A DNA stretch of 64,000 nt from an uncultured Gammaproteobacteria bacterium (GCA_964360785.1 CAYHXX010000003.1:22911-86910), one strand, 5' to 3'. Positions 12,001 to 47,843 are shown, numbered from the stretch's first letter. Program-made: numbers and translations. Notes: generated from the letters alone by a model not told the origin.

Positions 12001-14425
12001 CGTCCTGCAAACTAGCAGCTCCAGTATTGTCATCAGAACAAGAAATTACGCCTGAGGCATCGGCGGTTAAGGCACCACCGGAGGAGTTTCCAGTACAGTT
12101 AAAGCTAGTGAAAGTTAAACTGCCAGTTCCTTTATCAAGAGTTAGGCCACTAACACCAGAGACTGTTCCAGTTTCGTTATTGTCGCCAAGTACCAAATTG
12201 ACATCATTTGAAACACCGTCATTATCATTGAGAGTTAGAGTTCCAGTGAGGGTACCCCCAGTTAGTGGGAGATAATTGGAAGCAGTAATTGTGTCGGGTA
12301 TGTCACCGTCCACTATTGCACTAACGGTAAATGTACCACCAGCACTGTTTTGTCTGACAAATTGATTGGCCCCACCAGTTAATGAAAGATCAGCACCCGT
12401 ACCACCACGGCTTAATCCTAGCATCCCCGTAGTATCTGAAATTGCTCGGTTAGTGATTTGGGTGATGTTGGTTAGAGTAAGGTCATCGTTTACCTGGGCA
12501 TTAGTTAGTCCAGTTCCGACAGAAGCAGCTGGGAGAGTTCCAGTCACTTCCGAAGCCAGATCAATACTACTTCCCAATAAGGTAACACTTGTTCCCAATC
12601 TAACCTGAGCTACGCCACTACCTTGATCAAAAACATCAAAATGGTTAGTTCCTGATCCGGCAGTACCAAATTCTACAGTTGTAGCGGTGGTAACCGTAGT
12701 TCCTAGGTCTGTTTCTCGAACAGTAATTCCAGAAATTCCTCCACAGGAGCCCCAAACTGGAGCAGCAGTTACTGGGCTGGCTGCTTGTAAACAAAAACCG
12801 GCAGTTGAAGACTGAGCAGTGAAAGCATAAGCAGAGCCATCACTGTAGGCTACTGTTCCCGCGGCGCCAATTGCAGTTGCATTGGTTCCACCACGTCCGA
12901 TTGCTAAGGTTCCAGTAGTATCGCTGATAGCGCGGTTAGTTATTTGGGTAATGTTAGTTAGAGTAAGGTCATCGTTTACTTGGGTATTAGTTAACCCATT
13001 GCCAACTTGAGTTGCTGCAATCGCAATTGGTGTGCTTCCAGCTGCAGTCAAACGACCCTTATTGCTAACGGTGAAAGTTGCTACTGAAGAAACGGAACCA
13101 AAGGAGCCACCAACAACCGTATCAGTTAAATTAACTGTGCCATTAGGATCAGCTCCTCCAACTACAAAATCATTTTGGAAGGCAACATTATCGGCAAAAA
13201 TTGAAGTGGTCCCGTCGGTAATTGTAATTGGGCTGCCCGCACCTGTGTCGTCTGCTCCACAGGTAACCTGGCCGGAAAGGTTGGTTTCTAGAGCGTTAGT
13301 CCCGTTACAGTTTGCTACAGTTTGTAGGGTTAAAGCACCACTTAGAACCCCTCCAGTCAAAGGTAAATAGCCAGAAACAGTGATGTTGTCGGCAATATAG
13401 GGATCGGTAAGAGCAGTTGCTTGCCAAGTTCCCGAAGTAATTGTTCCAACGGTTGTGATCGAATTTTGGCCAGAGTAGTTACTGGCAATATCGACTGTGG
13501 TACCGGAAACCGTAATGCGGTTGGCAGCACCATTGAGGTTTACGCTTTGAGCAGCGACTGAGATGACTGGATTTTGCCCAGAGGTGATTGCAACGTTGGT
13601 CCCGGCCGTCAGTGAGTAGATGACATTGCTGGCAGTTAGCTTGCCAGTGCCGGCATCGATGTCGGTATTGTTGGTGACAATCCCGCCTTCGGCAGTGAGA
13701 GCGCCAGTAATGTTTGTGGGAACAAAAACTGAGAGCAAACCATCTTTGACGCTACTGCCCAGAGTTTCGCCGGGTTGTTCACCAGTAATACTCGGTAGAC
13801 TGTCCCTGTTTACGGTCAGATGATCCTTTTTGCTATCTTTAGATACAGAGCTGCGATTTACGGTAAGTAGGTAAACGAGGCCGAGTGTTAGCACCAGAAT
13901 CTCGACTCCAACTAGGGCCAGCTTCTTGTGGCTGAGACCTTGGCTTTTGAGAAAATTAAGTAGCGAAAACCCAAAGGCCGAAACGCCATTACTACCGGTT
14001 GTTTCGAGACTTGAGGATTCGTTGCTAGTTATAGCCTTCTCAGTAGAAGGAGGGAAGTTTTGTGTCGCTGCCGCGGGAAACGAACCTGAGTTATCATCTA
14101 TTTGTATATCAGTAGTGGACGAGATGGGGATAAATGTTTCTGTTGTCTCAGTGAGTTTTGACTCTCGCACTATCGTCTGTATAGTTTTTCCAGCTTTTAT
14201 ATTTTGGTCGATCTCGACCATTTGATCGACGGCAGAAATTGGGAGTGCGCCGGCAGCAGCGAGACCGTTGAAAGATTTGCGAGAAGCTTTGGGGAGAAGA
14301 CCGATTTTGATGTAGTAGCGTAGGCGGTTGTAGGGGTCACCTTTACCAAAATCGACGCCTTTTAGCTTTGCTAGGCGTATGACTTCGTCAAACGATATGA
14401 GATTTTGAGTAGCGTTGTTGCTCAT
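1..14425 (-). CDS. Giant surface protein, partial: the 3' end lies beyond the window start, so more than 4,800 aa are encoded here. N-terminal cytoplasmic MerR-like HTH, one TM helix, then an enormous Thr/Gly/Ser/Asn/Val-rich beta-repeat ectodomain with internal tandem duplications.
   Basis: ATG at 14423-14425 (rc) with an in-frame stop just upstream. N-terminus MSNNATQNLISFDEVIRLAKLKGVDFGKGDPYNRLRYYIKIGLLPKASRKSF parallels the N-termini of the 50888..54199 and 54865..57819 proteins. No minus-frame ORF is reported with a stop inside 1..14425, implying the frame stays open to the window edge. Codon bias on the + strand (acc/agt/ggt/gcc runs) is the reverse complement of Gly/Thr codons. A recurring rc-encoded motif ETAINIGTGWD appears. 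Confidence 0.7.
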   Translation of the reverse strand, partial: MSNNATQNLISFDEVIRLAKLKGVDFGKGDPYNRLRYYIKIGLLPKASRKSFNGLAAAGALPISAVDQMVEIDQNIKAGKTIQTIVRESKLTETTETFIPISSTTDIQIDDNSGSFPAAATQNFPPSTEKAITSNESSSLETTGSNGVSAFGFSLLNFLKSQGLSHKKLALVGVEILVLTLGLVYLLTVNRSSVSKDSKKDHLTVNRDSLPSITGEQPGETLGSSVKDGLLSVFVPTNITGALTAEGGIVTNNTDIDAGTGKLTASNVIYSLTAGTNVAITSGQNPVISVAAQSVNLNGAANRITVSGTTVDIASNYSGQNSITTVGTITSGTWQATALTDPYIADNITVSGYLPLTGGVLSGALTLQTVANCNGTNALETNLSGQVTCGADDTGAGSPITITDGTTSIFADNVAFQNDFVVGGADPNGTVNLTDTVVGGSFGSVSSVATFTVSNKGRLTAAGSTPIAIAATQVGNGLTNTQVNDDLTLTNITQITNRAISDTTGTLAIGRGGTNATAIGAAGTVAYSDGSAYAFTAQSSTAGFCLQAASPVTAAPVWGSCGGISGITVRETDLGTTVTTATTVEFGTAGSGTNHFDVFDQGSGVAQVRLGTSVTLLGSSIDLASEVTGTLPAASVGTGLTNAQVNDDLTLTNITQITNRAISDTTGMLGLSRGGTGADLSLTGGANQFVRQNSAGGTFTVSAIVDGDIPDTITASNYLPLTGGTLTGTLTLNDNDGVSNDVNLVLGDNNETGTVSGVSGLTLDKGTGSLTFTSFNCTGNSSGGALTADASGVISCSDDNTGAASLQDAYTGGPTISLLTATGNFKVNLGDAIGNNTTIDANVALAYTDGILFTTTVGTITDAIDVSAAGIVNAINIGANDILSNSVSISSAELNVLDGGIDESEVTGEIESVAAGLGLTGGGLAGAVTLSFDVSAALSGDHALSANEAKFGQSGLIFEGSAVGDLIETYISITNPTTTDKTITFPDASGTIILSGHSFTGDSTISLDSDGSTIFTIAADAVALGTDTIGNYVSSATTNGGLTLTGTEGASLGILIQTNAVDGTTGAGSVSGLSLTSDGLSLYRGCAAGGILEWDNTNFEWDCGTDNTGAGAASVSLRTTPTVGSLSILDFNDDVFDVTEPVGNTANVTFRLATAGTTAGASFSGLEKFTNGTTGGLSLLACSNGQILKKVTGNWTCSTDAGGGGGGSGQNLNDTYQLGNNIDITNTYGNLLFNLTDATNDNNVVVDNNTTGDVATALLFTTSGTGATIGTAIDISDAAIVNAINLGANNIVASGSLTIDFSGATTDSTLTLQNSSDDTTNDRIAAFKIDTEADALDKKLLIIESGVGGADNEKASIDSDGDLTLDGILTLAGGATSDIISSGTANLTISAAGTGNIRFLTDADTSVILPAAGFTTCTSLETVANVLTCGSDDVGTSSLQSEYVAGNTISLINTEGNLTINLGDNAGNNTTIDANVALAYTDGILFTTSVGTITDAIDASAAGIVNAINIGANDILSNSVSISSAELNVLDGGVTESEVSGVITDVTAGLGLTGGGASGNVTLAFEVSTALSGDPALGINGAKFGQSGLIFEGATDDLIETFIAVTEPAGTDNTITIPNASGTIILSGHTFSSDVTATLGSGGTTALTIAADSVTLTTDTTGNYVSSATANGGLTMTGTEGASLGILLATAGSDSTANFSGLTLDPAGGGNGLRLLNCSDTQILKKATGNWTCSADNDTTGGGESLQATYVIGPTIDVTTGEGNLAITLTSADFTVTTPTGGTNFTTLARADGAGAADPAQLLLINNADTNRDLPIGLKISQAAGTAVITTAIDLSDANINTAIAAGANDLSGTNWSITGSSGAASFVGVNSGAGLLQGTGGLTVTGTTSINASGSTATNIGTGTNAGTITIGNSSTGDLALNDAQWSVTGAGVATFANITCNSASCISTGEITDATITGDDIASSIAGNGLVLTAASPDTLDVGAGNGISVAADSVAVNQAYDFTWTGLHSWTSTLTNTAVIQDVNLTLGADGDIDSVIGINVDVTSAATGVADFIYGLNLSNVTTPDATVNERAIRIGTGWDAGIEFEGATNDLIEILITASDPTVSSKTFNLPNVASGDICISTVACNATTLGGATFAAPGSIGSTTPGSGAFTTLTSSGNTTLATGAGTTNSFGSGSSSINTIGSVTTPGALTLHGATTLDNTFSQTGANTFGTGTGAVSLNGDTAVASGKTLTLTGLGSGLVKATTGLLGLATAGVDYENPLTFTNGVSRSTNTVSLDLTYSPTWTGTHTFSPSGTGDTIFNGDDDSNIQVNSTVGADVSVNPVSITVTDNAAASTGTIYGFNLTNADNGANVGVIDALLRLNNANAAETTPRGLYIEQSGAGTLTSAIELAETAGTITDGITITGTLGNILNSGSIDITGAGAITGATGVSSSGTIAFSGLSTNGVVFTSGGTGTLNSEQYLATSRGGLGGDVTAAGAGEIVYSTGTTTYDNLASGALGRCLKANGAAAPSWETCPGGSTASPFIAQGAGAAKTIVKDTCCTDYKIDFTATEVDDYALKLNTSIADQSVDLFQVTNAGGFGTSVDTVNLASLNFTTTANVADTTNAALKIDVTSGTGGISDNLYGINIGTLSTPGSGKESAINVAGGWDNRVEFSSQIATGKVGLNFTATNLTGTAIDISGGASLTSLTSGTGLKISPSSLSTGHAIYINGSVNGTLTAMTGNIVEISPTRTLSGGAAAIDDTANYLNITRTNINSGGLGFTTSGATAKIANVFTNTSGGVTVTGDVLNLSSNCTGTCTYTGSTANILELNQQDANASGAVLNILNSGTGADISLDNGETIDNATDGTVQVTTARFRVDDPGATSYLLIRNDLSTAFDIETSGVELYIQDIAANTYFSPNSTGLVGIGTAGPGKRLDINSATGAALRLTYNDADGSAANYTDFDVSSSGNLTIAPSGTVISVDFPSGGEFQVDGNLRLTAASDRKIVNAFDNIIFEADSDNNGSGNLFTFQGNGTTAYLTIENTGYVDIAGHGAFGGNASVSTDQIVAVGETFSGIGTATYEGIYSATTIGPSGVQTGAITGRGLQALAQTSGANIGSGGFNVNLLALRGEVLHATTGTVNEAHGIRSLVRNTGGGTITSAFGLDVLSTENSGVGSTVTNNYGIYIQDQTAGATKNIELAFGGTSPTIEMAGTLTFQDNGTPNTLFSIVDSGTYGTIRLTDKGGTGDPATCTVGDVYFNDTDNQYKGCVTTNVWSSFTDNSGAGLTLQDVYNNDDNDASADILLTATDGSIVIQNPVATPSTSAFNLKVEQLATGVTTDLVKNLSVSSAGSFNTTSAPLTNYAGYLSNTSTESAGTNTLTNVGLGVNVSGADANYGIDIAGTLTSSIRFGGTATADITTTSNRDFIVLPNGTGDTVVFTDSGSQLYFDLSKTVGLYNSAVNTLRTDSKSIINFNPTADSGTVSLATIQGTTPAHSSGTNIINFLFIDPTNGNPTAGTNTLNGINIDSITGDAQQTENALNIESGWDTGLSIPSISGGTLGINTTIANSTVANTTAVRANIGTPTSNGQTGFEGIFSGVGAGNVSGLKLTATSGTYNGGSITAIDVSNITDTGTGSTAINIGSGWDTGIVIGGTVGVNFSGVTTDITTGTNENLTISPNGSGNVYFVVDSDTGIQIGTTAAVAPGEDLFNVANTFAGSGVTNDGIDGISVDFVTSGTVDRTNNALNIAVTSGGSDATDIVNGINLSLSGTSGTETAINIGAGWDNGISLGANKILGTTATIDFDNFDVAATGNITVQSGLGIDSNVGGGTLRVGTTTAGVVLVGNTTGGNEIAIGNAGGGGAGQITIGNTTSTTIDIWATGGLEVRADSEFILASNRNVALTAQNPSNVDMLAISNSGQASTLSGIDGIALTFGSSNASGDGIHIIPSYTSPSGADLLTYNVIEVDAFSPTNTAGTDTVNGLKFGNLTDPGATITSSAIKIGTGWDSQISGNGVNLDGSGNLLAVNANTATTGTTTGTGTDTTTLTLTTDPFNVNDVVLIDNTAGQDYYTRITVDPGTGSYTVSPAITFENTKTVTKYTTQNIGATSTDYSTTANRYYQGYFLGGIVAGAASTIYSDGRIDMPSGSDTTLNIGNSGAGVTNLVVDGTISGSGPAAGTSGYWSRGGSCVSSTALCTATSGDAVQINNLTSTRTTGELDIDTSSATAGHSGINLAYTATGAASGTQVGFDLTFTNNDVAQAAEVYYAQRITNANDAGANFTNALLNLDQADNTAGGITSGILFTDTGTGTFDFGIDFTQASAFDSAAIALGSHNIIGNNIDIDGGLATSGSQTQVSLSGTIPLLAAAQTFQGIYLNYTNSNNHTGGTINGLDLAISAADPDATETAINIGTGWDTGVSISSVPIGSTGITISLANVAIGQTENRGISVTTGTAASAGSNVDAYLATVPDSAALGSASVNGFRFADITTGPGGGNVNAIKIGSIGTPGTGNETAINIGSGWDTGINIATADAATGINITIADDSSVTNDIRKGVSVSTGTVTGTGVGRKYAYYASIPDVAIVSPGAGTINGFFLDNIGTGPSAGTVNAIQIGNITTPGAGTETGINIGTGWDNSINSAGTLGLASSLTTGTTVSIGSGVSRNITNDLTGLSIDLNTNYTWSAGNRFGLNIANVTSGGTGETAINIGTGWDREINFASTTPKIDMADGGTLAFRDGTNTLVSIVDSGTYGRVKIAAATGADPTCTAGEIYFNSTGPVFKGCVSTNTWQTFADTNGPVTLGPGIADSWGTANRGIWLDETGGSSPDLF
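9200..12080. repeat. Intragenic tandem duplication in the giant gene: segments of about 0.9 kb at ~9200-10200 and ~11100-12080 (period 1,875 bp), with nearly identical cores 9590-10020 / 11465-11900.
   Basis: The antisense track ORFs 9579..9989 and 11454..11888 are near-identical. Related motifs recur near 10800. Confidence 0.75.
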
Positions 14426-14575
14426 TGGGCAGGGTAGAACTATTCATCAATCGATTTTAAGGTAGTCAGTAGGTTCGAACAGTCTACCGACTTGAAATCC
14501 TGTCAATAGGGTATTTTGGGTAAAAGACCCACTCCAGCGCGGGAAAATCCTTTGCTGTGACGGGAAATCGTACTT

Positions 14576-14607
14576 AGATTATTTCACAATCCGAAAAAAA
14601 ATGTCAA
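14576..14607 (-). promoter_or_regulatory. Candidate sigma70-type promoter for the giant gene: perfect TTGACA and TATAAT separated by a 20-nt spacer containing a T8 homopolymer.
   Basis: Minus strand: TTGACA-TTTTTTTTCGGATTGTGAAA-TATAAT. The giant-gene ATG lies about 150 nt downstream. Confidence 0.35.
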
Positions 14608-14660
14608 GGCCCGATCTCTTTAATATATATACAGAAAAATTTCCGTGGTAAGATTTTATT

Positions 14661-15455
14661 ATGAAATCTGCCATAAGAGCGTTCAGCTCAATACTGCTAT
14701 CTGCTCTACTGCTTTCTGCTAGCGCAACCTTTGCCTTTTCCCAAGGTATTAATCAAGTGGCTTACAATGTGGTTGTTGCAGAATCAGATGCAGAGACTGG
14801 GAGTATAGTCTCATTCAAAAATGGTCAATACGAACTCAGCAAAGCGGAATATGATACAGGAGTATATGGAGTTATATACTCTGATGCACAAGTCGCCCTC
14901 GGAAAGATTACTGTTGCAACCAAGCCGGTTGTAGTAAATGGAGAAGCTTTAGTAAAAGTTGCTACTAGTAACGGTGAGATAAAAGCAGGGGACTTGGTAA
15001 CTACCTCAAAAGATAAAGGAATAGGTCAGAAAGCAACAAAATCCGGACATGTACTGGGTAAGGCACTGAAAGATTTTCCAAACTCAGAAGCTTCGGGAAA
15101 TAATGGAGTGGTTCCGGTATTAATAAATGTTAGTTACAACCAAATCTCTTCTAGCTCAGAAGCTTTAACTGATCAGGGTCTCGATCAGGTGGCCAAGAAA
15201 GTTTCTAGCTCAATAGTTTCCGGAAACATTCCCAATCTTCTTAAGTACATATTTGCTCTGTTGCTGGGAGCTATAAGCTTCTTTGTCGGCTTATCACACT
15301 TTGTCCGTAGCAACCGAACGGCAGTGGAAGCAATCGCCAGAAACCCTTTGGCAAAAGCTGACATTCAGCGGCAACTATTTTTTGGAACTGCTGGAATACT
15401 TGTAGTGTGTGGTATTGGGTTAGCAATATCAGTGTGGATATTACTATTCTTGTAG
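14661..15455 (+). CDS. Fusion protein: signal peptide, then the conserved giant-protein C-terminal module (...KPVVVNGEALVKVATSNGEIKAGDLVTTSKDKGIGQKATKSGHVLGKALKDF...INVSYNQ), then a C-terminal F-ATPase c-subunit-like two-helix hairpin without the conserved Glu/Asp.
   Basis: C-terminal 70 aa GAISFFVGLSHFVRSNRTAVEAIARNPLAKADIQRQLFFGTAGILVVCGIGLAISVWILLFL aligns to c-subunit GxGxG...IARQP-loop...QxxFIGxALVEAL, but the carboxylate position is Leu/Val. The N-terminal domain aligns to the C-terminal about 100 aa of all four giant proteins. It lies directly upstream of atpF. Confidence 0.6.
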   Translation: MKSAIRAFSSILLSALLLSASATFAFSQGINQVAYNVVVAESDAETGSIVSFKNGQYELSKAEYDTGVYGVIYSDAQVALGKITVATKPVVVNGEALVKVATSNGEIKAGDLVTTSKDKGIGQKATKSGHVLGKALKDFPNSEASGNNGVVPVLINVSYNQISSSSEALTDQGLDQVAKKVSSSIVSGNIPNLLKYIFALLLGAISFFVGLSHFVRSNRTAVEAIARNPLAKADIQRQLFFGTAGILVVCGIGLAISVWILLFL

Positions 15456-15457
15456 GG

Positions 15458-15478
15458 TGACAAGGTCCGTCCTTGTCA
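15458..15478. repeat. REP-like palindrome (variant): tGACAAGG-TCCGT-CCTTGTCA.
   Basis: 7-bp stem GACAAGG/CCTTGTC and a 5-nt loop. It sits between the c-like gene stop and atpF. Confidence 0.6.
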
Positions 15479-15491
15479 AAGGTAAGAATTT

Positions 15492-16094
15492 ATGAATCTA
15501 GCAATCTATCTGTCGGTAATATTAAATCTAGTCACACTTGGTCTGGTGGCCTATCTTTTGCAAAAATCACGCCAGAGTGGAAGTAGTCTTGGGCAAAATC
15601 TTCCCCAAACACAAAACCTAAAAGAGCAGGCAGCGACGATACAAAACTTGGAAAACCAGTTTAAGCAGGTGCTACAAGAACTAATATTAAAGAATAAAGA
15701 AGTGATTCAAAGTACATCAGATAACCTGGTCAAATACTACCAAGATACAGTCACTACCATGACACTCAACTACAACCAAAATACAGAGAAGCTGATGCAA
15801 CTACTCGATCAGGAACTAAAAGTACGTGTGGAGAAACTCGACCAAACCACTATCAGACATATAGAGGAATCTCGAAAGGAAGTTAATGACCAAGTAAAGA
15901 AAGATCTTGAAGGGCTGAATAAGCAACTAGACAAGTACTCAAAGGAAAGGTTCAAACAACTGGACGAAAAGATCTACGAGATTGTTTCCGAGACTGCTAA
16001 AAATTCTGTTGGTAAAGTAATTAACCTAGTCGACCATCAAGAGCTCGTAATGTCGGCACTTGAGCAAGCCAAAAAGGACAAATTCTTTTCATGA
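15492..16094 (+). CDS. atpF: F-type ATP synthase subunit b (N-terminal TM helix followed by a long charged coiled coil).
   Basis: MNLAIYLSVILNLVTLGLVAYLL TM, then a Gln/Lys/Glu-rich helix. The position is between the c-like gene and the delta subunit. Its stop overlaps the atpH start (ATGA). Confidence 0.6.
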   Translation: MNLAIYLSVILNLVTLGLVAYLLQKSRQSGSSLGQNLPQTQNLKEQAATIQNLENQFKQVLQELILKNKEVIQSTSDNLVKYYQDTVTTMTLNYNQNTEKLMQLLDQELKVRVEKLDQTTIRHIEESRKEVNDQVKKDLEGLNKQLDKYSKERFKQLDEKIYEIVSETAKNSVGKVINLVDHQELVMSALEQAKKDKFFS

Positions 16095-16618
16095 AACCTG
16101 AATTTTCGATCTTTGCTACTGGGATTACGGATACAAAAGTTCTCTATCGTTTGGTCGATAAACTAAACGCGATTAACAAAGAACTTTATCACAACCAGGA
16201 AGGCAGCATTGCGCAGAAAGCCAAGAGCATCAGCCCGTCACTGATCGCGGTTTTTAACTATTTAGAACAAAAAGGTTTGGAGCCATCAGGGGATGAAGCA
16301 CAAAAAGCGTATATCGCAGAAATTATCAGTTATCTCAAGAGTTTGCTAGTTGTGAGAATTACAATGGCTTTTGAACCTGACGATACCTTTAGCACTAAGA
16401 TCAACGAAGTGATAAGTAGCCTTGCTGGGCGTAAAATTGTGCTGGATATTGCAGTCAACCACCACATTGTTGCCGGCATTACTCTCGAGTACAACGGTAA
16501 GTTCTCTGATTATAGCTATGAGGCTAGAACTGATACCTTTTTGAAGGAAAGACTCGGAGGTTTTTTCGCGGTAGCTTCAAATGAAGTTAGAAATCAACCA
16601 GAGCAGTTAGTAAACTAA
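16091..16618 (+). CDS. atpH: F-type ATP synthase subunit delta (OSCP-like).
   Basis: 175 aa. The C-terminal ...VNHHIVAGITLEYNGKFSDYSYEARTDTFLKERL resembles the delta C-terminus. Gene order is b-delta-alpha. Confidence 0.55.
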   Translation: MKPEFSIFATGITDTKVLYRLVDKLNAINKELYHNQEGSIAQKAKSISPSLIAVFNYLEQKGLEPSGDEAQKAYIAEIISYLKSLLVVRITMAFEPDDTFSTKINEVISSLAGRKIVLDIAVNHHIVAGITLEYNGKFSDYSYEARTDTFLKERLGGFFAVASNEVRNQPEQLVN

Positions 16619-16619
16619 A

Positions 16620-18107
16620 ATGCAGAAATTTGAAGAGTATCTTAAACAAATAGGTGAGGTTGGCTATGTCGAGTCGATCATTCACTCGATTTTCTATGTC
16701 AACGGCTTGCCTGGAGCCAAACTGCACGAACTGATTCTTTCAGAAAACGGCCATATTGGCATTGTCCAAGGTGTTCTGCCAGATCTGGTCGAGGTTATGC
16801 TGCTTCAAGGGGAGAATCTTGGCCACAACGTCCGGGTAGTTCGTACCAATGAGACTTTTGAGATGCCAGTAACCGATCGTTACCTAGGTAGGGTTATCAG
16901 TCCTTTTGGTCAAGCGCTAGATGAGCACGGACCAATCGGGGAAATAAAGACAAAATACCCAATCGACCCCAGAGCTCCCGGCATTAATGCCCGCAGCCGG
17001 GTCAAAGAGCCGATGGAGACAGGGGTTATCTCAGTCGATATGCAGGTGCCAATTGGGAAAGGGCAACGTGAAATGATCATGGGAGACCAGAAAACTGGTA
17101 AAACCACCTTCGCCTTGCAGGTTATCGGTAACCAAGTGACAAGTGGAGCCATTTGTATTTATGTTTCGATTGGGAAAAAGAAATCTGATTTGAAATTTGT
17201 GGTGAAAACTTTGGCCGATCTCGGCGCTCTCAAGAGCACTGTAGTCGTCGCTGCTTCTGCTTCTGACCCTGCCCCTCTGATTTATCTTGCGCCTTTTAGT
17301 GGGCTGTCGATTGCCGAGTATTTCCGAGATTTGGGTCGGGAAGTAGTGGTAGTTTTTGATGATCTCACTACCCACTCAAAGTTTTACCGGGAAACTTCTT
17401 TGATCACTCGCCGAACCCCAGGTCGGCAAAGCTATCCGGGAGACATTTTTCACCTCCACGCACGGATGGTCGAGAGAGCTGGGAATTTTAAGATGCAAAA
17501 TGGGAAAACTGTTCCCATCACTTTACTTCCGATCGCCGAGACTCTCGAAGGTGACTTGGCCGGGTATATCCAAACCAACCTAATGGCGATGACAGACGGT
17601 CACGTATTTTTTGATGTGGCTGAGGCTAAGAAAGGCCGGCACCCAGCAGTATCTTTCACCCTGTCCGTATCTCGGGTTGGAAACCAAACTAAAACTGCTC
17701 TTGAAAGAGAATTGTCAAAACTAATAACTGAGAAACTTTCTGCTTATCGAAAAGCCGAAGAGGTTAGTCGTTTTGGAGTTGAGCTGACTACCCAAACTTT
17801 GCAGGCATTGGATTCCGGTGAGAAACTTATTGCCCTTTTTGATCAGGAAAGCCAGATTATCACCCCAAAAGGATTGCAACTTGTATATCTAGGTTTGTTT
17901 TTCGGAGGAGCCTGGGACAAGAAAAGCGCCAAAGAAGTGCGGGTGGAGAAAATTAGAATTCTCGGTGAATACCTGCAAGGTAAGTACTCAAACCTGCCCG
18001 TCGAAGCAAAGTTAGCTAGTTCGGTTAAAGAGTTGGTAACGCTTGTAATGAGGTATTTTAAGCTGGGAGTTACTGTCCAGAAAGAAACAGAGGGTGTTGC
18101 TAAATAA
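16620..18107 (+). CDS. atpA: F-type ATP synthase subunit alpha.
   Basis: P-loop MGDQKTGKTTFALQVIGNQ (compare GDRQTGKT). 495 aa, with alpha-like N-terminal beta-barrel and C-terminal regions. Confidence 0.9.
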   Translation: MQKFEEYLKQIGEVGYVESIIHSIFYVNGLPGAKLHELILSENGHIGIVQGVLPDLVEVMLLQGENLGHNVRVVRTNETFEMPVTDRYLGRVISPFGQALDEHGPIGEIKTKYPIDPRAPGINARSRVKEPMETGVISVDMQVPIGKGQREMIMGDQKTGKTTFALQVIGNQVTSGAICIYVSIGKKKSDLKFVVKTLADLGALKSTVVVAASASDPAPLIYLAPFSGLSIAEYFRDLGREVVVVFDDLTTHSKFYRETSLITRRTPGRQSYPGDIFHLHARMVERAGNFKMQNGKTVPITLLPIAETLEGDLAGYIQTNLMAMTDGHVFFDVAEAKKGRHPAVSFTLSVSRVGNQTKTALERELSKLITEKLSAYRKAEEVSRFGVELTTQTLQALDSGEKLIALFDQESQIITPKGLQLVYLGLFFGGAWDKKSAKEVRVEKIRILGEYLQGKYSNLPVEAKLASSVKELVTLVMRYFKLGVTVQKETEGVAK

Positions 18108-18110
18108 TTT

Positions 18111-18983
18111 ATGTATTCAAAAGCCGAACTAAAAAAATATTCAGATGCTGTTGCGACGATAAAGTCCATAACCAGGGTTTATGAGGAAGCAGCTGCTCGT
18201 CGGATCAAACTTATTCAAAACTCCGTCTCCAAAATTGACGAGTTTCTTGGTTCGACAGCAGATTCCTACGTGAACATAAAATTTGGATTGCTGGCTGAGG
18301 AGAAAAATAAAAAAGTCCCTCGGAAAGATATTCTTACACGCAGCTTTCGAGAGAAGACAAAAAAAGGAGTCTTAGTTTTGATATCTTCGCACGAACAGTA
18401 CTTTGGTAACCTGATCCCCAATGTGTATCGAGCCTGGAAAGAAGATTTACTGTCCAGCAACCTTGACGGAATTATCTTTGGAAATACCGGCAAAAGGCTA
18501 CTCGAGAAAGATAACCTCCAAAAGGACAGTATTGTTTGCTACGATCTGGCTGACAGCGATCCTGACTGGGAACTGGTCTACAGAATCGGTGAGAAAGTGG
18601 CCAGCTACGAAAAGATCGTTGTCTACTATGGTAAGTATCGAACTGTTCTGACCCAAACTCCGGAGAAAGCTGATCTGAGTACACCAATGACGGTGGGGCA
18701 GGTACAACAAGTGAAGCGCTATTTGTTTGAAGACCAGGGGGAAAATATCCTCGGTTTTTTTGAAAAAGAAGTAGTCAACGCCCAACTGCAGAAGCGTGTT
18801 TATCAGTCGCAGATCGCACGTTATGCCGCCAGAATCAAGATTTTAGAGATCGGACAAGTAGCAGAGCAGATGAGTAAAGTGCTAGGTGATCTGAGCCGGG
18901 GAAAGCTAAAAGTGCGGAAGAATTTGTCAAATAAGAAACAACTTCAACTATATACAGGACTAGATTTGTGGGGAGACAGTTAG
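18111..18983 (+). CDS. atpG: F-type ATP synthase subunit gamma.
   Basis: 290 aa between alpha and beta. N-terminus ...KSITRVYEEAAARRIKLIQNSV matches the gamma consensus (...ITKAMEMVAASKMRKAQ). Confidence 0.7.
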   Translation: MYSKAELKKYSDAVATIKSITRVYEEAAARRIKLIQNSVSKIDEFLGSTADSYVNIKFGLLAEEKNKKVPRKDILTRSFREKTKKGVLVLISSHEQYFGNLIPNVYRAWKEDLLSSNLDGIIFGNTGKRLLEKDNLQKDSIVCYDLADSDPDWELVYRIGEKVASYEKIVVYYGKYRTVLTQTPEKADLSTPMTVGQVQQVKRYLFEDQGENILGFFEKEVVNAQLQKRVYQSQIARYAARIKILEIGQVAEQMSKVLGDLSRGKLKVRKNLSNKKQLQLYTGLDLWGDS

Positions 18984-19036
18984 TACGACAACACCTACGG
19001 GTTTTAACCAGTTGTTCTTGCGTCTAAGAAGACTAA

Positions 19037-20473
<1,437 letters not shown>

Positions 20474-20480
20474 TGTAGAT

Positions 20481-20509
20481 TTGGCTAAATATGCATTTTC
20501 CACTATAAT
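20481..20509 (+). promoter_or_regulatory. Promoter TTGGCT-17-TATAAT, 8 nt upstream of the ATG of 20518..22740 (leaderless-type).
   Basis: Exact 17-nt spacing. The -10 ends 8 nt before the ATG. Confidence 0.45.
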
Positions 20510-20517
20510 TTAAGTTA

Positions 20518-22740
20518 ATGCCCAGGATAGTCAAAAAAACTCTTGCAAGTTTTGTCCTCGCAATACTTTTTGCAAGTATAGTTCCAATTCAAAACTCAAA
20601 CGCAGTTGTTTCTTCCTGTACTGCCAATATCACTCCAAACCAAGTTGCAAGTGGTTCAACCAACAACTTCTCGCTGACCGTCACCAATACTTCCGGACAA
20701 GTGATCAATTGGGTCAGAATCACCCGTCCCAACAGCAACTTTACCTTGGGAGGTATTATTGCTTCGCTTTGGACGATAGTTGCTACGTCTGACAACTTCA
20801 CACTAACTGGTAGAACGATCAATTCTGGAGCAAGCAAAACTTTTTCCCCGACCAGTGTTGTGGCAGCTAGTACTGACCAGCCAGCCGCCAATTGGTCGGT
20901 GTTAGCCTCCGATAACGCTAGTGGGGCTTCTCCAACTAGTTGTACCGGGACGCTAGGAACCCAGATCGGGAATCCAGATGTGACTGCGCCAACTATTTCG
21001 GGTATAACTGTTTCCAACATAACCGCGGGAGGCGCGAGCATTTCTTGGACGACAAACGAATTATCAGATTCAAAAGTAAACTTTGGAACCTCGATCTCTT
21101 ATGGGCAAAATGTTGCAAGTGCAAGTTTAACAACAAACCATTCACTGAACCTGTCCGGGCTTTCCGCCAACACCGGTTACCATTTCCAAGTTCAAAGCAA
21201 GGACGCGAGTAACAATACCGCCAGCTCATCAGACAACACTTTTCTGACTGCGGCCGTTAGCCCCACTCCAACTCCAACCACCACGGTCACAACCACCACG
21301 ACAACTGAAAAACCAAGTGTAAGTACGGATAGTACTTTACCGATGGTTAGTTTAACCACAAACCTCACAGCAGTTTATAAAGAAACGCCGACAATCCTTG
21401 GATTAGCAAGTGATAATGTAGCGCTACAAAAAATCGAATACTCGATTGACGCAGGCGAGAATTGGTTGCCAGTGGATAAAAGCGTTGGTTTAAATACAAA
21501 AAAAGCTAGTTTTGAGTTCAAACCAGCGGGCTTGCCAGATGGAAACTACGATATTCTCGCTCGTGCTTTTGATACAAGTAACAACGAAGGCCGGGGAGGA
21601 GAGTCGGTTTTGATCATCGACCAGCTGCCACCGATCATTGGGCCGAACGTAGTTTCTTTTGGATCACAAGCAGCTAACGTAGAGAATAACCTAATCTATG
21701 CAGTCATTGGGGTCGACCAACGGATTACTCTAGCCACCATTGGTGGCCCGACAAGTGTGGGCATCAAAGCTGTCTCAAAAGACGAAAGAGCAAAACTTTT
21801 CTCGCTGACCAAAGAATTAGGTAGCAATCTTTGGTCAGGAATTTTAGCCTTCGAAGAACCAGGGGAGTACACACTCGTTGCCACCGCCAAAGATGGTGCT
21901 GGCAACATTGTCTCCCGTGAACTAAACAACGTTTTTGTCAATAAACCTTCTCAGGTGGTTAATGCTGAGGGTAAGGCACTAGAGAATGCTAAAATCGAGG
22001 TAAATTATTTTGATGAGGAGAGTTCCAGTTGGTACCTTTGGGACGCAGCTGCCTTTGGACAGAGCAATCCGCAAACAACCAACGCCAAGGGTGAATTTAA
22101 CTTCTTTTTACCCGCTGGGAAATATTTCCTCAGAGCAGAGTCAGAGGGTTACTATTCGGAAAATAGTGAGATCTTTGTCTTGAAAGAGGGTCTGCCACTC
22201 GCTGCTAGTATCAAACTGGAAAAAAGCTTTGGCATAAAGTTAGCGGACTTTAAGCTTGTTTTCCCGAGAATTAGTTTGGAAGGTTTTAAGGTTGATCTTG
22301 GGAATAAGGTATTGGTTTCTGATCAAGCCTCAAATTTGGTCAACAAAAATTTGCCTGCTTTCACCCTCCAAAATAGTCAGAAAGGGATTTTGAATGAAAG
22401 TTCCTTGTCAGGTAAGAACACTTTGTTGTCATTTGTGGCTACTTGGTCGCCCTGGTCTGAAGAGCAGATCGCCCAGCTAGAGAAATTAGCTGCAAGTGGT
22501 GAAGGTCAAAATATTTTCTTGATTACAACACTAGAGTCTCAGGAAAAGGTAGCTGCCTACAAGAAAATTGGTAACTACGAGGTTGAGTTCTTGGTTGATC
22601 CGACTGGAGGGATCTTGTCCAAGTTTAATATTCTGACAATTCCCTATCATTTAATTGTTGGCGAAGACTTACAAGTCAAAGAAGCCAAAACCGGCGTTTT
22701 TTCAAAAGAGGAATTGCAAGAAGCCTTGGATAAACATTAA
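20518..22740 (+). CDS. Secreted multidomain protein: signal peptide, FN3-like domain, Thr-rich linker, Ig-like and CarboxypepD-reg-like domains, then a C-terminal TlpA/thioredoxin-like domain whose CxxC is replaced by SPWS.
   Basis: N-terminal MPRIVKKTLASFVLAILFASIV signal. FN3-like ISGITVSNITAGGASISWTTNELSDSKVNFGTS...TGYHFQVQSKD. CarbopepD-like AKIEVNYFDEES...GEFNFFLPAGKYFLRAESEGY. TlpA-like LSGKNTLLSFVATWSPWSEEQ. Paralogue of 25595..27853. Confidence 0.7.
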   Translation: MPRIVKKTLASFVLAILFASIVPIQNSNAVVSSCTANITPNQVASGSTNNFSLTVTNTSGQVINWVRITRPNSNFTLGGIIASLWTIVATSDNFTLTGRTINSGASKTFSPTSVVAASTDQPAANWSVLASDNASGASPTSCTGTLGTQIGNPDVTAPTISGITVSNITAGGASISWTTNELSDSKVNFGTSISYGQNVASASLTTNHSLNLSGLSANTGYHFQVQSKDASNNTASSSDNTFLTAAVSPTPTPTTTVTTTTTTEKPSVSTDSTLPMVSLTTNLTAVYKETPTILGLASDNVALQKIEYSIDAGENWLPVDKSVGLNTKKASFEFKPAGLPDGNYDILARAFDTSNNEGRGGESVLIIDQLPPIIGPNVVSFGSQAANVENNLIYAVIGVDQRITLATIGGPTSVGIKAVSKDERAKLFSLTKELGSNLWSGILAFEEPGEYTLVATAKDGAGNIVSRELNNVFVNKPSQVVNAEGKALENAKIEVNYFDEESSSWYLWDAAAFGQSNPQTTNAKGEFNFFLPAGKYFLRAESEGYYSENSEIFVLKEGLPLAASIKLEKSFGIKLADFKLVFPRISLEGFKVDLGNKVLVSDQASNLVNKNLPAFTLQNSQKGILNESSLSGKNTLLSFVATWSPWSEEQIAQLEKLAASGEGQNIFLITTLESQEKVAAYKKIGNYEVEFLVDPTGGILSKFNILTIPYHLIVGEDLQVKEAKTGVFSKEELQEALDKH

Positions 22741-22754
22741 ACTAAATACAAGCT

Positions 22755-24356
22755 ATGCTGCCATTACAGTTTTTCGGTCAAAATATTAATTTCGCCCTTA
22801 ATCTATTTTTTAGTTTAGTTACCTTTGCAACTTTTTGGTTGTATTTTGCCGCTTGGTTGGGTCAAAAAAAGCTGCAAAGCTCATTTAAATGGTTCGCTTT
22901 TCTACTAATTTCAGCTTCGTTCTTGTTTCAAGCGGTTGTTATCGACAAAGAAATATTGGGAGATTCACTTTTTGCTAACTACCCTGAGAATCTTGCTTTA
23001 GTAGTGAGAGCGGTTGGTTACGCTGTCTTGGTTTTTGCCTTGATCAGAGAACCGTTGCAATCACCGCCAATTATTCCAGTTAGTTTACCAAAGCCAAAAC
23101 GAACTCATAAGTTGTTAATGCCGTTTAGTCTGACAATAGTTCCCAAAGTATTACTTCCGGTCGGAGCGTTCGCGGTCGCTTTTCTCTACTTTCGGAAGGC
23201 AACCGATGGGATGGAAAAGCACTTAAGAGCAGTCGCTTTTGCTTTCTTATCCCTGGCTGTTTATGAAGTGCTTGGGCTTTCAAGTCTTTTTCGTGAGACG
23301 ACAAACATCACTATTTCAAATCTAATTGCTCCCTTCGGACCAATCTGGGCTTTGCAACAAGTATTCTTGCTGATTTCCCTTGTGATACTTGGTCGTTGGG
23401 TTTGGGGCTACCTGCTTAAACGTTTGCAAAGCCAGTTATTTATTATTTTTACCAGTACTGTTTTAGTTATTTTTCTAGTTATCAGCATTGGTCTTACTTT
23501 CTTGTTGATTAAAAATATTGAAAAAAGCGCTTTGGACAACTTGGAGACAGCTTCAAAAGTTCTTAACTATAGCTTGGATTCGAAGAAAGCTGAATTGTCA
23601 GCTATTGCAGAGGTTTTTACCCAAAATCCAGAGATCTCAGCAGCAGTATTAGCAAAAGACCACAACAAACTCAATTTGCTCGTTTCCAAATCTCTTGAAA
23701 ACAAGAAAATCTCCTCGCTTGTGATCACGACCAACGCTGCGATGGTACTCTCACGTGCCGAAGACCCGGACAGCTGGGGAGACTCTTTATCGAGTGATGC
23801 CTTAGTTCAAAAGGCAATCTCCGGTAGCAACCAAACTAGTATTGTGACCAAGGTAGGGAATCTTGTACCGGCGGTTTACCTCCAATCGGCCCAACCAATA
23901 CTAAAGGACTCTGCTGTGGTCGGTACTGTTTTGGTAGGTTTGGCGATCTCAAACAATTTCCTTGATGGTATAAAAACCTCAACTGGCTTGGATAGCGCTA
24001 TTTACGCTGCGAATACCAGAACGGCGACGACCATCCTTGCTCCCGATAAGAAAAGCCGTTGGGTTGGAATCAAAGAGGAAAATTCGCAAATCAAAAAAGA
24101 GGTCTTAGAAAAAGGGCAGACCTTTAAAGGTAGTTCTAGCTTGGTCAACAGACCCTTTCTGGTGGTCTACAAACCACTCAAAAATGTTAACAATGAGATT
24201 GTTGGGATGATTTTTACGGGACAGCCTGAAGTTTCTATTTTGCTTGCAGCCGGAAGATCAATTGAGTTGGTGTTTATTTTAGCCGCTGTTCTTCTGATTA
24301 TTTCCCTGGTTCCAAGCTATCTAATTTCAAAATATATCGCTTATCAATTAAGCTAA
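22755..24356 (+). CDS. Membrane sensor-like protein: N-terminal multi-TM region, an extracytoplasmic Cache/PDC-like domain of about 270 aa bracketed by TM helices, and no cytoplasmic output domain.
   Basis: Hydrophobic N-terminus. The sensor-like region ...WGDSLSSDALVQKAISGSNQTSIV...VNNEIVGMIFTGQPEVSILLAAG is followed by a terminal TM and a stop. Paralogue of 27857..29455. Confidence 0.55.
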   Translation: MLPLQFFGQNINFALNLFFSLVTFATFWLYFAAWLGQKKLQSSFKWFAFLLISASFLFQAVVIDKEILGDSLFANYPENLALVVRAVGYAVLVFALIREPLQSPPIIPVSLPKPKRTHKLLMPFSLTIVPKVLLPVGAFAVAFLYFRKATDGMEKHLRAVAFAFLSLAVYEVLGLSSLFRETTNITISNLIAPFGPIWALQQVFLLISLVILGRWVWGYLLKRLQSQLFIIFTSTVLVIFLVISIGLTFLLIKNIEKSALDNLETASKVLNYSLDSKKAELSAIAEVFTQNPEISAAVLAKDHNKLNLLVSKSLENKKISSLVITTNAAMVLSRAEDPDSWGDSLSSDALVQKAISGSNQTSIVTKVGNLVPAVYLQSAQPILKDSAVVGTVLVGLAISNNFLDGIKTSTGLDSAIYAANTRTATTILAPDKKSRWVGIKEENSQIKKEVLEKGQTFKGSSSLVNRPFLVVYKPLKNVNNEIVGMIFTGQPEVSILLAAGRSIELVFILAAVLLIISLVPSYLISKYIAYQLS

Positions 24357-24357
24357 T

Positions 24358-24386
24358 TTGAAAGCAGTCGAGTATCGAGTTATAAT
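24358..24386 (+). promoter_or_regulatory. Promoter TTGAAA-17-TATAAT, 6 nt upstream of the receiver ATG at 24393 (leaderless-type).
   Basis: Exact consensus -10 and 5/6 -35. Confidence 0.5.
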
Positions 24387-24392
24387 TTGAGC

Positions 24393-24767
24393 ATGGCGAA
24401 AATACTTATAGTCGAAGATGACGAACTAATCTCAGGAATGTATCAGAGTATTTTTACTTTTGATAAGCATGAAGTCGCGATTGCCAGTGATGGGGAAGAA
24501 GCCCTGGCTAAGATTGGCGGGTTCAAACCAGACTTGGTTCTTCTTGATATCATGATGCCAAAGATGAACGGTCTACAGGTTCTAGATAAGATCAAAGCTG
24601 ATCCTGAAACAAAGGCTATTCCCGTGGTGATGCTGACCAATCTTGATGCCAAGCAGGATGCGGAAACTGCCCTAGCAAAAGGGGCTATAAAATATATCGT
24701 CAAGAGTAACTATAATCCCAAACAAATTAGTGACATGGTAAAGGATATCTTGGCTGAAGTTTCTTAA
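24393..24767 (+). CDS. Stand-alone response-regulator receiver domain (CheY-like).
   Basis: MAKILIVEDDELISGMYQ...LLDIMMPKMNGLQVLDKIK...PVVMLTNL...KYIVKS. The ATG at 24393 is preferred over the track's TTG at 24387. Same N-terminus as the paralogue at 32958. Confidence 0.8.
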   Translation: MAKILIVEDDELISGMYQSIFTFDKHEVAIASDGEEALAKIGGFKPDLVLLDIMMPKMNGLQVLDKIKADPETKAIPVVMLTNLDAKQDAETALAKGAIKYIVKSNYNPKQISDMVKDILAEVS

Positions 24768-24771
24768 TTAG

Positions 24772-25107
24772 GTGTTTACCCAAACTTTTCTTATGGATAT
24801 TGATGTCAGCAAACTGCCTACAACCTCAGCATACAAAGTCGATCGACTTTTTGTGACGGTTTATTCACTCGGCGCGCTGCAAAAACCGCCTTTCCAAGGC
24901 TTTGTCAAAAGTATCAGTTCGGTGGATACAAAAGGCCCGTTTGATATCCTACCCGTACATGAGAATTTTATTACACAATTTTCAAAAAAACTCGAAATTT
25001 TACCAGAGACAGGGGACAAGATTAGCTTTGAACAACCAACTGGCGTGATTGAAGTTGCCAACAATGTTGTCAAAATTTTTTTAAAAAAGAAAGAAACAAA
25101 GTCTTAG
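24772..25107 (+). CDS. atpC: F-ATPase epsilon-subunit-like protein (N-terminal beta-sandwich only). Possible alternative start at ATG 24793.
   Basis: ...TKGPFDILPVHENFITQF...PTGVIEVANNVVKIF aligns to epsilon GELGILPGHAPLLT...GGILEVQPNKVTIL. 111 aa, lacking the C-terminal helical hairpin. Confidence 0.45.
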   Translation: MFTQTFLMDIDVSKLPTTSAYKVDRLFVTVYSLGALQKPPFQGFVKSISSVDTKGPFDILPVHENFITQFSKKLEILPETGDKISFEQPTGVIEVANNVVKIFLKKKETKS

Positions 25108-25122
25108 TTTGAGGAGAACACT

Positions 25123-25494
25123 ATGAAAAAAATATTGATTGTTGAAGATGACATAAACTTACTCAATCTTTATAAAGAAGTATTGACGAGGGAAGGGTAT
25201 GAATTAAAGTTAGCTGAGGATGGAGGTGAGGCGTTGCAAATAGCTGCCAGTTTCCAACCTGATATCGTTCTCTTGGACCTGATGCTGCCATACGTGGATG
25301 GGTTTAAGGTTCTTGAAGAGCTAAAATCCAATCCGAAGACAGAGCACTGTTTTGTCATTGTCCAGACCAATCTTGACTCAGAAATGCAGCGACAAAAAGC
25401 CAAGAATCTCGGTGCCAATGAATTCTTGGTTAAATCCGAGAGTGATCCCGGAAGTTTGATCGAAGATATCAAACACCTTCTCGCCACACACTAA
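25123..25494 (+). CDS. Stand-alone response-regulator receiver domain.
   Basis: MKKILIVEDDINLLNLYKE...VLLDLMLPYVDGFKVLEELK...VIVQTNL. SD GAGGAG 6 nt upstream. Confidence 0.8.
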   Translation: MKKILIVEDDINLLNLYKEVLTREGYELKLAEDGGEALQIAASFQPDIVLLDLMLPYVDGFKVLEELKSNPKTEHCFVIVQTNLDSEMQRQKAKNLGANEFLVKSESDPGSLIEDIKHLLATH

Positions 25495-25503
25495 AAATCC
25501 TAT

Positions 25504-25524
25504 TGACAAGGCCCGTCCTTGTTA
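25504..25524. repeat. REP-like palindrome TTGACAAGG-CCCGT-CCTTGTT.
   Basis: Intergenic, after the receiver at 25123..25494. Confidence 0.7.
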
Positions 25525-25558
25525 CTATAGAAGGGCGTTTTATTTTCTGGTTTTGAGT

Positions 25559-25587
25559 TTGACCAGAAGCTAGTTTTTCAATAGAAT
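25559..25587 (+). promoter_or_regulatory. Promoter TTGACC-17-TAGAAT, 7 nt upstream of the ATG of 25595..27853.
   Basis: 5/6 and 5/6 matches with 17-nt spacing. Confidence 0.45.
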
Positions 25588-25594
25588 AGAAGTA

Positions 25595-27853: not shown

Positions 27854-27856
27854 GAT

Positions 27857-43430: not shown

Positions 43431-43501
43431 TCTATACATTGAATAAATGTAAGTATTATTAGAGGTTGTTATTTGAAACCACAGGATGTAAATTAGAGTT
43501 A

Positions 43502-47574: not shown

Positions 47575-47843
47575 CTATTACTATTCTATAAGTTAAAGAT
47601 AGAAACTTCAATTTTCCTAGTTACTTTTTAGAAAAGTAGCCAAAATTTGCGCCTGGCTGCGTGAGCTAAAGAAATTAAAGGCGCTCAAGCAAAACTGGTA
47701 AACTCGTCCCGATAAATCGAGACTCAAACAAACCAGTTTGTGCTAGGTCGCTTTGTTTAACTTCTTTTTGACGCTTACTCGCATGGCGCTGAAAATAAAC
47801 TTCGTTGATTAAAATGAGCTACTTTAGTAGAATCAACGCAATT

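Follow-up and report, generated by a model that had tools for sequence, protein, structure and literature searches.

An F-type ATPase operon without subunit a and with a carboxylate-less c-like protein from a groundwater metagenome: a candidate surface-coupled machine of the Patescibacteria

Composition of the operon

The 64,000-nucleotide stretch of DNA analysed here (GCA_964360785.1 CAYHXX010000003.1:22911-86910, deposited as an uncultured Gammaproteobacteria bacterium; hereafter the window, with positions counted from its first letter) carries an F-type ATPase operon that lacks a gene for subunit a and in which the gene at the c position encodes a fusion protein without the membrane-embedded carboxylate. 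The window originates from a 0.1-µm-filtered Hainich groundwater metagenome (ENA ERZ1292618 and its replicates), and we place its bacterium in the Candidate Phyla Radiation (CPR). A first-pass annotation of the window had read the gene order as c-like fusion, b, delta, alpha, gamma and beta, followed by a secreted multidomain protein, a Cache membrane protein and a receiver. Our open reading frames (ORFs), Pfam searches and family profiles recovered these genes of interest at the same coordinates, all on the plus strand (Table 1). The gene order is not a mis-assembly, because an independent second assembly from a replicate sample agrees with it, having the identical order at 99.99% identity to the window. 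The two assemblies differ in the 3' part of gamma, where the replicate has 10 bp (L001:14162-14171) and the window 93 bp (18822-18914). The gamma call of the replicate is thereby only 246 amino acids (aa) long; the relatives, like the window, have a gamma of 290 aa. Behind this difference is either variation in the population or a fault of one assembly. Public records hold no names for these proteins.

Related operons were sought by a genome scan with a 10-sequence alignment and in metagenomes; 80 loci came from species-representative genomes and 9 more from metagenomes. They were annotated with hidden Markov models (HMMs) built from the window proteins and cover about 20 kb per genome, the window representing 64 kb of its own. 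The 67 non-redundant loci holding both the c-like and epsilon genes formed the core comparison set: alpha, gamma and beta are present in all of them, delta in 64, and a b-like gene at the b position in 63. Host labels of the related loci, which include several obvious mislabels, are Woesebacteria, Curtissbacteria, Levybacteria, WWE3, Pacebacteria, Doudnabacteria, Nealsonbacteria, Woykebacteria and "Patescibacteria group". Three loci (L009, L052 and L081) encode c-like, alpha, gamma, beta and epsilon and have no recognisable peripheral stalk, because b and delta are both missing; in a fourth locus, L072, b was not detected. The "alpha-like" ORF of L061 proved to be Rho. Between c-like and b, a gene for cofactor-independent phosphoglycerate mutase (iPGM, ~560 aa; PF06415, E 2e-73) is present at L077:10690-12387 and in ~20 other Woesebacteria/Pacebacteria-type loci. 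This is a curious parallel to the F1-like motor of Mycoplasma mobile, of which phosphoglycerate kinase is a structural part.

The protein at the c position consists of a signal peptide/helix, an extracellular beta-barrel (residues ~30–157), a linker helix and a c-subunit hairpin (residues 190–263), and its AlphaFold2 (AF2) model, in which the beta-rich domain spans residues 33–156, has a pLDDT of 81. Neither the whole protein nor the isolated hairpin matched Pfam, and the c identity came from the family profile. Built from 22 homologues, this profile matched only F-type c subunits in the PDB (2wie, E 1.4e-5), and the modelled C-terminal hairpin superposed on c-ring protomers at 1.3–1.9 Å in Foldseek, so that the label "c-like fusion" of the first-pass annotation was right. 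An RNP loop (R227-N228-P229 in the window) occurs in 90/90 c-like homologues; it corresponds to the R-Q/N-P loop through which canonical c subunits touch gamma and epsilon. No membrane-embedded Asp or Glu was present in either helix of any of these 90 proteins. Leu247 of the window protein aligns with the ion-binding Glu62 of 2wie (Spirulina ring), and the position is hydrophobic. In Foldseek, the ectodomain matched phage preneck-appendage (phi29 gp12-type) barrels, tail/fibre proteins and capsid decoration proteins, with E 7e-5 in the PDB and E 5e-12 at ~2.3 Å root-mean-square deviation in BFVD. An exhaustive profile search returned 806 representatives of the family at 50% identity (E ≤ 1e-30), nearly all of 250–290 aa. 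The window protein belongs to this family over its full length, with E values down to 1e-158 when compared with homologues.

Subunit a is absent from the whole window, as the first-pass annotation had also stated. At least three hydrophobic segments were counted only in the c-like protein, both Cache proteins, the histidine kinase, ComEC and two short ORFs (10002-10745 and 38374-38739), which lie opposite giant genes and are probably spurious. The a-type Arg motif was found in no multi-transmembrane (multi-TM) ORF of the window or of the related loci, and neither an a-like ORF nor a small free-standing c gene occurs in any of the 67 loci. Multi-TM ORFs in the flanks were considered as candidates for subunit a and rejected, being site-2-protease-like, CPBP-like, ComEC, PMT-like and similar proteins. 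The first-pass annotation had further framed the region as an atp locus merely missing atpB. This frame, and with it an ordinary synthase whose a subunit is encoded elsewhere, finds no support, given a carboxylate in 0/90 c-like homologues and neither a nor a canonical c in any related locus.

The F1 part looks active, yet it is the equivalog of no named family. Window alpha and beta carry the catalytic Walker A/B motifs, the catalytic Glu and the Arg finger of canonical F1Fo. Alpha has the motifs GDQKTGKT and SVSRVG, and Walker A is conserved in 72/73 alpha and 71/71 beta family members. Most family members, and the window proteins with them, also have the catalytic GER motif, Walker B, the PADD motif and a DELSEED-like loop. 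Against the PDB, beta scored 375 bits with canonical F1 beta and 284 bits with M. mobile G1 beta. No subunit reaches an NCBIfam equivalog cut-off, be it that of F0F1, of N-ATPase or of either mycoplasma F1-like family. For F0F1, beta narrowly misses the cut-off (TIGR01039, 459.6 versus 462.85 bits) and alpha scores 386 versus 484 (TIGR00962), while gamma (TIGR01146, 28.5 versus 194), delta (17.9 versus 57.5), epsilon (21.4 versus 67) and c (18.8 versus 122) miss by a wide margin. The b-like protein fits a b subunit by its architecture and its place in the operon. It has a conserved C-terminal AKxxxGKxIxxxxHExLV motif in the family alignment, and its profile matched the Chloroflexus b subunit weakly (E 3e-4), amid coiled-coil noise.

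Table 1. Features of the window, with the evidence for each
Feature	Position	Strand	Basis
ATPase operon core (c-like/b/delta/alpha/gamma/beta)	14661-20473	+	epsilon separate at 24772/24793-25107
c-like fusion, 264 aa	14661..15455	+	family profile, AF2 model, Foldseek
b-like peripheral-stalk protein, 200 aa	15492..16094	+	one N-terminal TM helix, coiled coil
delta/OSCP-like, 175 aa	16091..16618	+	PF00213, 26 bits (gathering threshold 22.3)
alpha, 495 aa	16620..18107	+	PF00006, E 7e-60
gamma, 290 aa	18111..18983	+	PF00231, E 2e-12, 47.8 bits (gathering threshold 39.9)
beta, 460 aa	19091..20473 (ATG 19091; ORF opens TTG 19061)	+	PF00006, E 1e-63
secreted/anchored multidomain protein, 740 aa, inserted paralogue	20518..22740	+	fn3, CarboxypepD_reg-like, AhpC-TSA (Pfam, NCBIfam)
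multi-pass double-Cache membrane protein, 533 aa, inserted paralogue	22755..24356	+	dCache_3, E 7e-22
CheY-like stand-alone receiver RR_a	24393..24767 (ORF opens TTG 24387; ATG 24393 likely)	+	PF00072 Response_reg, E 2e-25
epsilon, 104 aa, N-terminal beta-sandwich only	24793..25107 (ORF opens GTG 24772)	+	PF02823, family profile
CheY-like stand-alone receiver RR_b	25123..25494	+	PF00072, E 4e-23
secreted multidomain protein, 752 aa, orthologous copy	25595..27853	+	Pfam
multi-pass membrane Cache protein, 532 aa, orthologous copy	27857..29455	+	Pfam; 81% identical to L011 fragment
membrane CHASE4-domain protein, 378 aa	29460..30596	+	PF05228, E 3e-17
sensor histidine kinase MASE6-PAS-HisKA-HATPase_c, 778 aa	30599..32935	+	Pfam
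third stand-alone receiver, 130 aa	32958..33350	+	PF00072, E 9e-26
conserved intergenic element, ~160 nt	14500..14660		alignment with L010, L011, L004, L012
giant surface protein, N-terminal 4,808 aa (5,801 aa in full contig)	2..14425	-	open frame, gene call
large surface proteins with c-like-type barrel	34662-42194, 50888-54199, 54865-57819	-	c-like HMM, E 1e-31 to 1e-40

Epsilon and the signalling genes

Epsilon is separated from beta by a sensor cassette in this lineage. Alone, the ORF at 24772-25107 matched PF02823 with E 9.4e-5 and 22.8 bits, under the gathering threshold of 27. All of its 19 homologues searched matched the same model (best E 9.8e-13), and the family profile retrieved only epsilon chains from the PDB (best E 5e-7). 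The true start is likely ATG 24793 (MDIDVSKL), because the relatives and the publicly called 104-aa gene agree on it. The C-terminal helical domain is missing, and the identity as epsilon is firm at the family level. Epsilon lies directly 3' of beta in 66/67 loci. The gap has a median of 3 bp and never exceeds 156 bp, except in the window, where it is 4,298 bp. Its four closest relatives (L004, L011, L012 and L009; c-like identity 50–64%) have the order beta-epsilon, then a receiver, a secreted protein and a Cache protein.

The same cassette follows epsilon in the window (25123-29455), and the genes between beta and epsilon are its diverged paralogue. RR_b is 67% and 62% identical to the receivers of L011 and L004 and is the orthologue of the relatives' post-epsilon receiver; the secreted protein downstream of it is 65% and 56% identical to the proteins of the same two loci. 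The inserted and downstream copies are only 39% (secreted proteins) and 51% (Cache proteins) identical to each other. Because of this low identity, the inserted cassette (20518-24767) is an old paralogue and not a recent tandem duplicate. Its receiver, RR_a, is closest to the third receiver of the window (67% identity), and no direct repeats flanking the insertion were found. Both proposals of the first-pass annotation on this point, namely that the displaced ORF is an epsilon N-terminal beta-sandwich and that its displacement came about by insertion of the signalling genes, are thus borne out by the homologues and by synteny with the relatives.

The inserted secreted protein ends in a TlpA/ResA-like thioredoxin fold with SPWS in place of CxxC, and the downstream copy has SPAS at this position; because the CxxC is replaced, the thioredoxin domains of both are probably redox-inactive. 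The inserted Cache protein has an extracellular double-Cache domain, ~8 hydrophobic segments and no recognisable cytoplasmic output domain. Read from the sequence, the receivers of the window have the complete set of phospho-acceptor residues. A TTGAAA-17-TATAAT sequence (24358-24393; 11-of-12 match) ends 7 nt upstream of the RR_a ATG, which suggests a possible leaderless transcript, and a terminator-like hairpin with a 9-bp stem follows RR_b at 25544-25569. A receiver-epsilon-receiver unit would thus be bounded by the promoter match and the hairpin.

Stand-alone receivers, some of them accompanied by kinases, are found inside the operon or next to it in 12/67 loci, in several arrangements. 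The receiver overlaps the epsilon stop codon by 4 bp in L007 and L021, lies 27–28 bp past epsilon in L023, L025 and L012, and is convergent downstream of the operon in L026, L033 and L067. Between alpha and gamma, L005 (10010-11529) and L014 encode a receiver together with a histidine kinase on the same strand, with gaps of 10 bp and 84 bp to the neighbouring genes. In L004, a CHASE4/PAS protein overlaps the epsilon stop codon. The C-terminal domain of canonical epsilon regulates hydrolysis. Because this domain has been lost here, a receiver beside epsilon is a plausible replacement regulator. The first-pass annotation had also considered the cassette to be functionally tied to the ATP synthase; the recurrence of receivers at the operon makes such a tie a plausible hypothesis.

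The region downstream of epsilon differs from that of most relatives. At 25.1-47.8 kb lie the sensors, kinase and receivers together with lipases, a 2,510-aa protein and an IS200-like gene, a block that has the look of a lineage-specific expansion. An IS200/Y1-transposase-like gene (33391-34050; PF01797, E 6e-11) and a SpoIIAA/STAS-like gene (34227-34637) stand at the end of the signalling block. The ~800-aa proteins found after epsilon in many loci are leucyl-tRNA synthetase (LeuRS). The LeuRS gene is directly 3' of epsilon in many CPR loci, and in the window it is at 47805-50402, 22.7 kb downstream.

Giant surface proteins and other genes of the window

A divergent gene for a large surface protein is a conserved neighbour of the operon. 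Of the 73 loci with enough sequence upstream of c-like, 63 have a divergent gene there whose product is 500 aa or longer, the largest exceeding 4,800 aa. The first 14.4 kb of the window look gene-poor and were considered as a possible rRNA operon. This was rejected, as the region is one giant minus-strand gene running off the window, and Rfam and tRNA scans found no RNA genes in the whole window. The giant protein has a ~90-aa cytoplasmic N-terminal domain with a weak match to MerR-type helix-turn-helix proteins (E 0.004) and a single TM helix at residues ~180–200, followed by thousands of residues of repeats that form the ectodomain. The MerR-like domain is shared by 25/63 upstream giants and by the 984-aa and 1,103-aa proteins of the window; as a speculation, it might be a membrane-tethered regulator of the divergent promoter.

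The giants and the c-like protein share an ectodomain. The c-like HMM matches giants via this domain only (HMM positions ~33–186), among them the upstream giants of L044, L046 and L066 and the three large minus-strand proteins of the window (Table 1). Because the domain is shared and the divergent pairing is conserved, the c-like protein and the giants may interact physically. The same three window proteins have conserved hydrophobic tails (…FxWFILNQQ, …FNWLIVNQE and …FDWFIVN; …NWWIIN in relatives), which may be a sorting or assembly signal.

The intergenic element between the giant and c-like genes is 80–90% identical in L010, L011, L004 and L012, compared with ~55–66% for the flanking proteins. 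Within it are TGTCAAG boxes and CGGGAAA repeats, two of each, as well as an inverted repeat of the type GGGTA...TACCC and a TATATATA run. A minus-strand TTGACA-18-AATAAT match lies at 14607..14578. The relatives have ~200 nt of additional conserved leader, which is missing in the window. The element had no Rfam match, and its RNA-structure support was weak. Elsewhere in the window, tandem genes for GDSL-family lipases/acylhydrolases (42465-43430 and 43466-44497) each encode a terminal type I dockerin, which is unusual for a small-genome bacterium.

Relation to known ATPases and likely function

The operon shares its ground plan with canonical F1Fo (atpBEFHAGDC). From c to epsilon the genes stand in the same order; alpha, beta, gamma, delta and the epsilon N-terminal domain have their homologues in both, as has the c-type hairpin with a polar R-x-P loop, and the putative stalk protein is b-like. 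In contrast, the present operon has no a, its c hairpin lacks the carboxylate and carries a ~130-aa extracellular domain behind a signal peptide, its epsilon is without the C-terminal helical regulatory domain, and its subunits are all below the equivalog cut-offs. The N-ATPase (atpDCQRBEFAG) is likewise a second, divergent F-type operon family, but it has a, an ion-binding c, AtpQ and AtpR, no delta and another gene order; the window proteins scored 403 versus 752 (TIGR03305) and 353 versus 750 (TIGR03324) with its models. FliH-FliI-FliJ are F1 and stalk homologues that work without ion translocation by a and c. They differ in having a homohexameric ATPase and no c ring, and the scores of the window proteins are much lower (~160–210 bits).

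The closest functional analogues are the F1-derived systems of mycoplasmas. The type 2 (gliding motor or G1-ATPase of M. mobile) and type 3 (MIB-MIP associated) clusters have a non-bioenergetic surface role, are genetically linked to membrane proteins and giant surface proteins, and possess cluster-specific membrane partners and no homologues of the peripheral stalk or of c (PMC11864180). An F1-derived alpha/beta/gamma core with a small beta-sandwich subunit is common to them and the operon described here. However, they belong to a different clade, the scores with the NCBIfam alpha/beta models tested (MMOB1660/1670 and MSC_0618/0619) being 346 versus 850, 329 versus 600, 364 versus 570 and 238 versus 520. 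The CPR system has also kept delta, a b-like protein and a recognisable c hairpin. In mycoplasmas, the F1-derived systems coexist with a genuine F1Fo.

An operon of this kind has apparently been seen before. Kantor et al. 2013 (mBio, PMC3812714) described, in a complete WWE3 genome, an ATPase operon whose membrane subunits had no homology to known ones; adjacent "a, b and c" were assumed to be present, the putative c was common to OP11 genomes, and the direction of the reaction and the ion were unclear. We found homologous operons in metagenome-assembled genomes of WWE3, Woesebacteria, Curtissbacteria and Levybacteria. That study did not report that the carboxylate and a are missing, nor did it describe the ectodomain, the pairing with giants or the two-component link. 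Later reviews credit Patescibacteria with an F-type ATP synthase and call its role a puzzle, and the source study of this metagenome likewise credits them with one. Beyond the remark of Kantor et al. 2013, no characterisation of this system was found in the literature. The window has the layout of the family: c-like fusion is the first gene, b to beta and a short epsilon (displaced by 4.3 kb) follow, and the divergent gene for a large surface protein lies upstream (2-14425, minus strand). Judged from sequence, the operon is a widespread, barely described, a-less and carboxylate-less branch of the F-type ATPases.

With the proton path lost, the complex is probably an ATP-burning machine at the cell surface. 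The reading we favour, with modest confidence, is that the operon encodes an F-type-derived, ATP-hydrolysing, non-ion-translocating and surface-coupled machine of a CPR/Patescibacteria family, controlled by receivers in some lineages; its function is what we infer from the genes and their neighbours. An F1-like head would sit on a ring of c-like hairpins, and the complex would hydrolyse ATP only and move no ions. Torque or conformational work would reach the outside of the membrane via a crown of ectodomains, which would probably act on giant fibre proteins with this ectodomain, whose genes are usually divergent neighbours of the operon. In this clade and several others, stand-alone receivers beside epsilon would gate the motor, under Cache, CHASE4 and PAS sensors and the histidine kinase. 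In this lineage alone, an old diverged paralogue of the sensor cassette was inserted between beta and epsilon. A more specific version, which we consider unlikely, is a surface motor in which the F1-like ATPase turns or strains the carboxylate-less c ring, the crown of phage-fibre-type domains docks giant fibres carrying the same domain, and the receivers serve as a phosphorylation-dependent clutch that stands in for the lost C-terminal domain of epsilon; such a motor would be of a kind not recognised in bacteria before.

Several observations weigh against a receiver-gated surface machine. With a beta that only just misses the atpD equivalog cut-off, the F1 part departs little from the canonical one. 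The three loci without b and delta, together with the one without a detected b, are awkward for a rotary stator model. Complete upstream giants do not all have the shared ectodomain (e.g., L077), and part of the giant adjacency could be chance, because giants are common in these genomes (four in the window). Receivers accompany the operon in just 18% of loci, and matches to promoter and terminator consensus sequences are no commoner than in shuffled sequence. The negative results for subunit a and canonical c apply to the 64-kb window and ~20 kb per related genome. Assembly, ATP hydrolysis and rotation are likewise steps that we infer.

The presence of all F1 and stalk subunits with intact catalytic motifs, and a beta close to the atpD cut-off, would suit a working chemiosmotic ATP synthase or ion pump, with a and perhaps a normal c encoded elsewhere or with an unconventional ion path, the c-like protein being an accessory or variant rotor. 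But the c-position gene has no membrane carboxylate in 90/90 homologues, and no a, no multi-TM ORF with the Arg motif and no small c-like ORF occur in the window or in the related loci fetched. The sole ATPase operon described in the complete WWE3 genome has non-homologous membrane subunits, and a and c would need to have been split from the operon in every lineage, which makes this explanation very improbable. The loss of a and of the key c residue, the truncated epsilon and the absence of b and delta from some loci could also be read as decay, leaving a functionless relic of an ATP synthase in a reduced symbiont. This is barely credible for a system that has kept all its genes intact in hundreds of lineages that diverged deeply (806 clusters at 50% identity), with an invariant RNP loop, conserved catalytic motifs and conserved gene order.

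The giants themselves might be the substrate of the ATPase, as in an export or assembly machine likened to FliH/FliI/FliJ of type III export, in which the head powers secretion, folding or trimerisation and the c-like ring is a portal or template. The conserved divergent pairing with a giant secreted protein, the ectodomain that c-like and giant proteins have in common, and its likeness to fibre-end domains of phages, such as the phi29 preneck-appendage (gp12) barrel, all fit this idea. However, the operon has no genes for export-gate proteins, a protein-conducting pore is not known from c rings, and the ordinary N-terminal signal/TM segments of the giants suggest Sec export; the retained stalk of delta and a b-like protein is typical of a torque-resisting rotary enzyme. 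We therefore regard export or assembly as quite unlikely. Somewhat less doubtful, though still not likely, is that the cassette is incidental, a duplicated two-component/sensor block that came to lie between beta and epsilon by chance, with epsilon expressed by read-through or from an internal promoter. There is no receiver nearby in 82% of related loci, LeuRS follows epsilon in most CPR loci, the expansion at 25.1-47.8 kb has an IS200-like gene inside, and promoter-like sites precede several cassette genes. Yet at least four arrangements of receivers in or next to the operon occur across distant clades (e.g., L007 and L021; L005 and L014), and the cassette is kept after epsilon in 4/4 close relatives.

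The surface-coupled machine favoured here bears on the energy metabolism ascribed to a large part of the CPR. In at least 806 clusters at 50% identity, from Woesebacteria, Curtissbacteria, Levybacteria, WWE3, Pacebacteria and several Parcubacteria-type groups, the enzyme may not be an ion-coupled ATP synthase. If so, metabolic reconstructions that count matches to alpha, beta and gamma as "complex V present" would need changing, and this would be the second independent F1 motor recruited for surface work in a minimal host-dependent bacterium, after the mycoplasmas. The recurrent linkage to receivers suggests a testable switch for such a motor. If the more specific surface motor were true, adhesive fibres would be moved or remodelled outside the cell by ATP use inside it, in host attachment, motility or contact-dependent uptake, and many Patescibacteria scored as having ATP synthase would be without any chemiosmotic ATP synthase.

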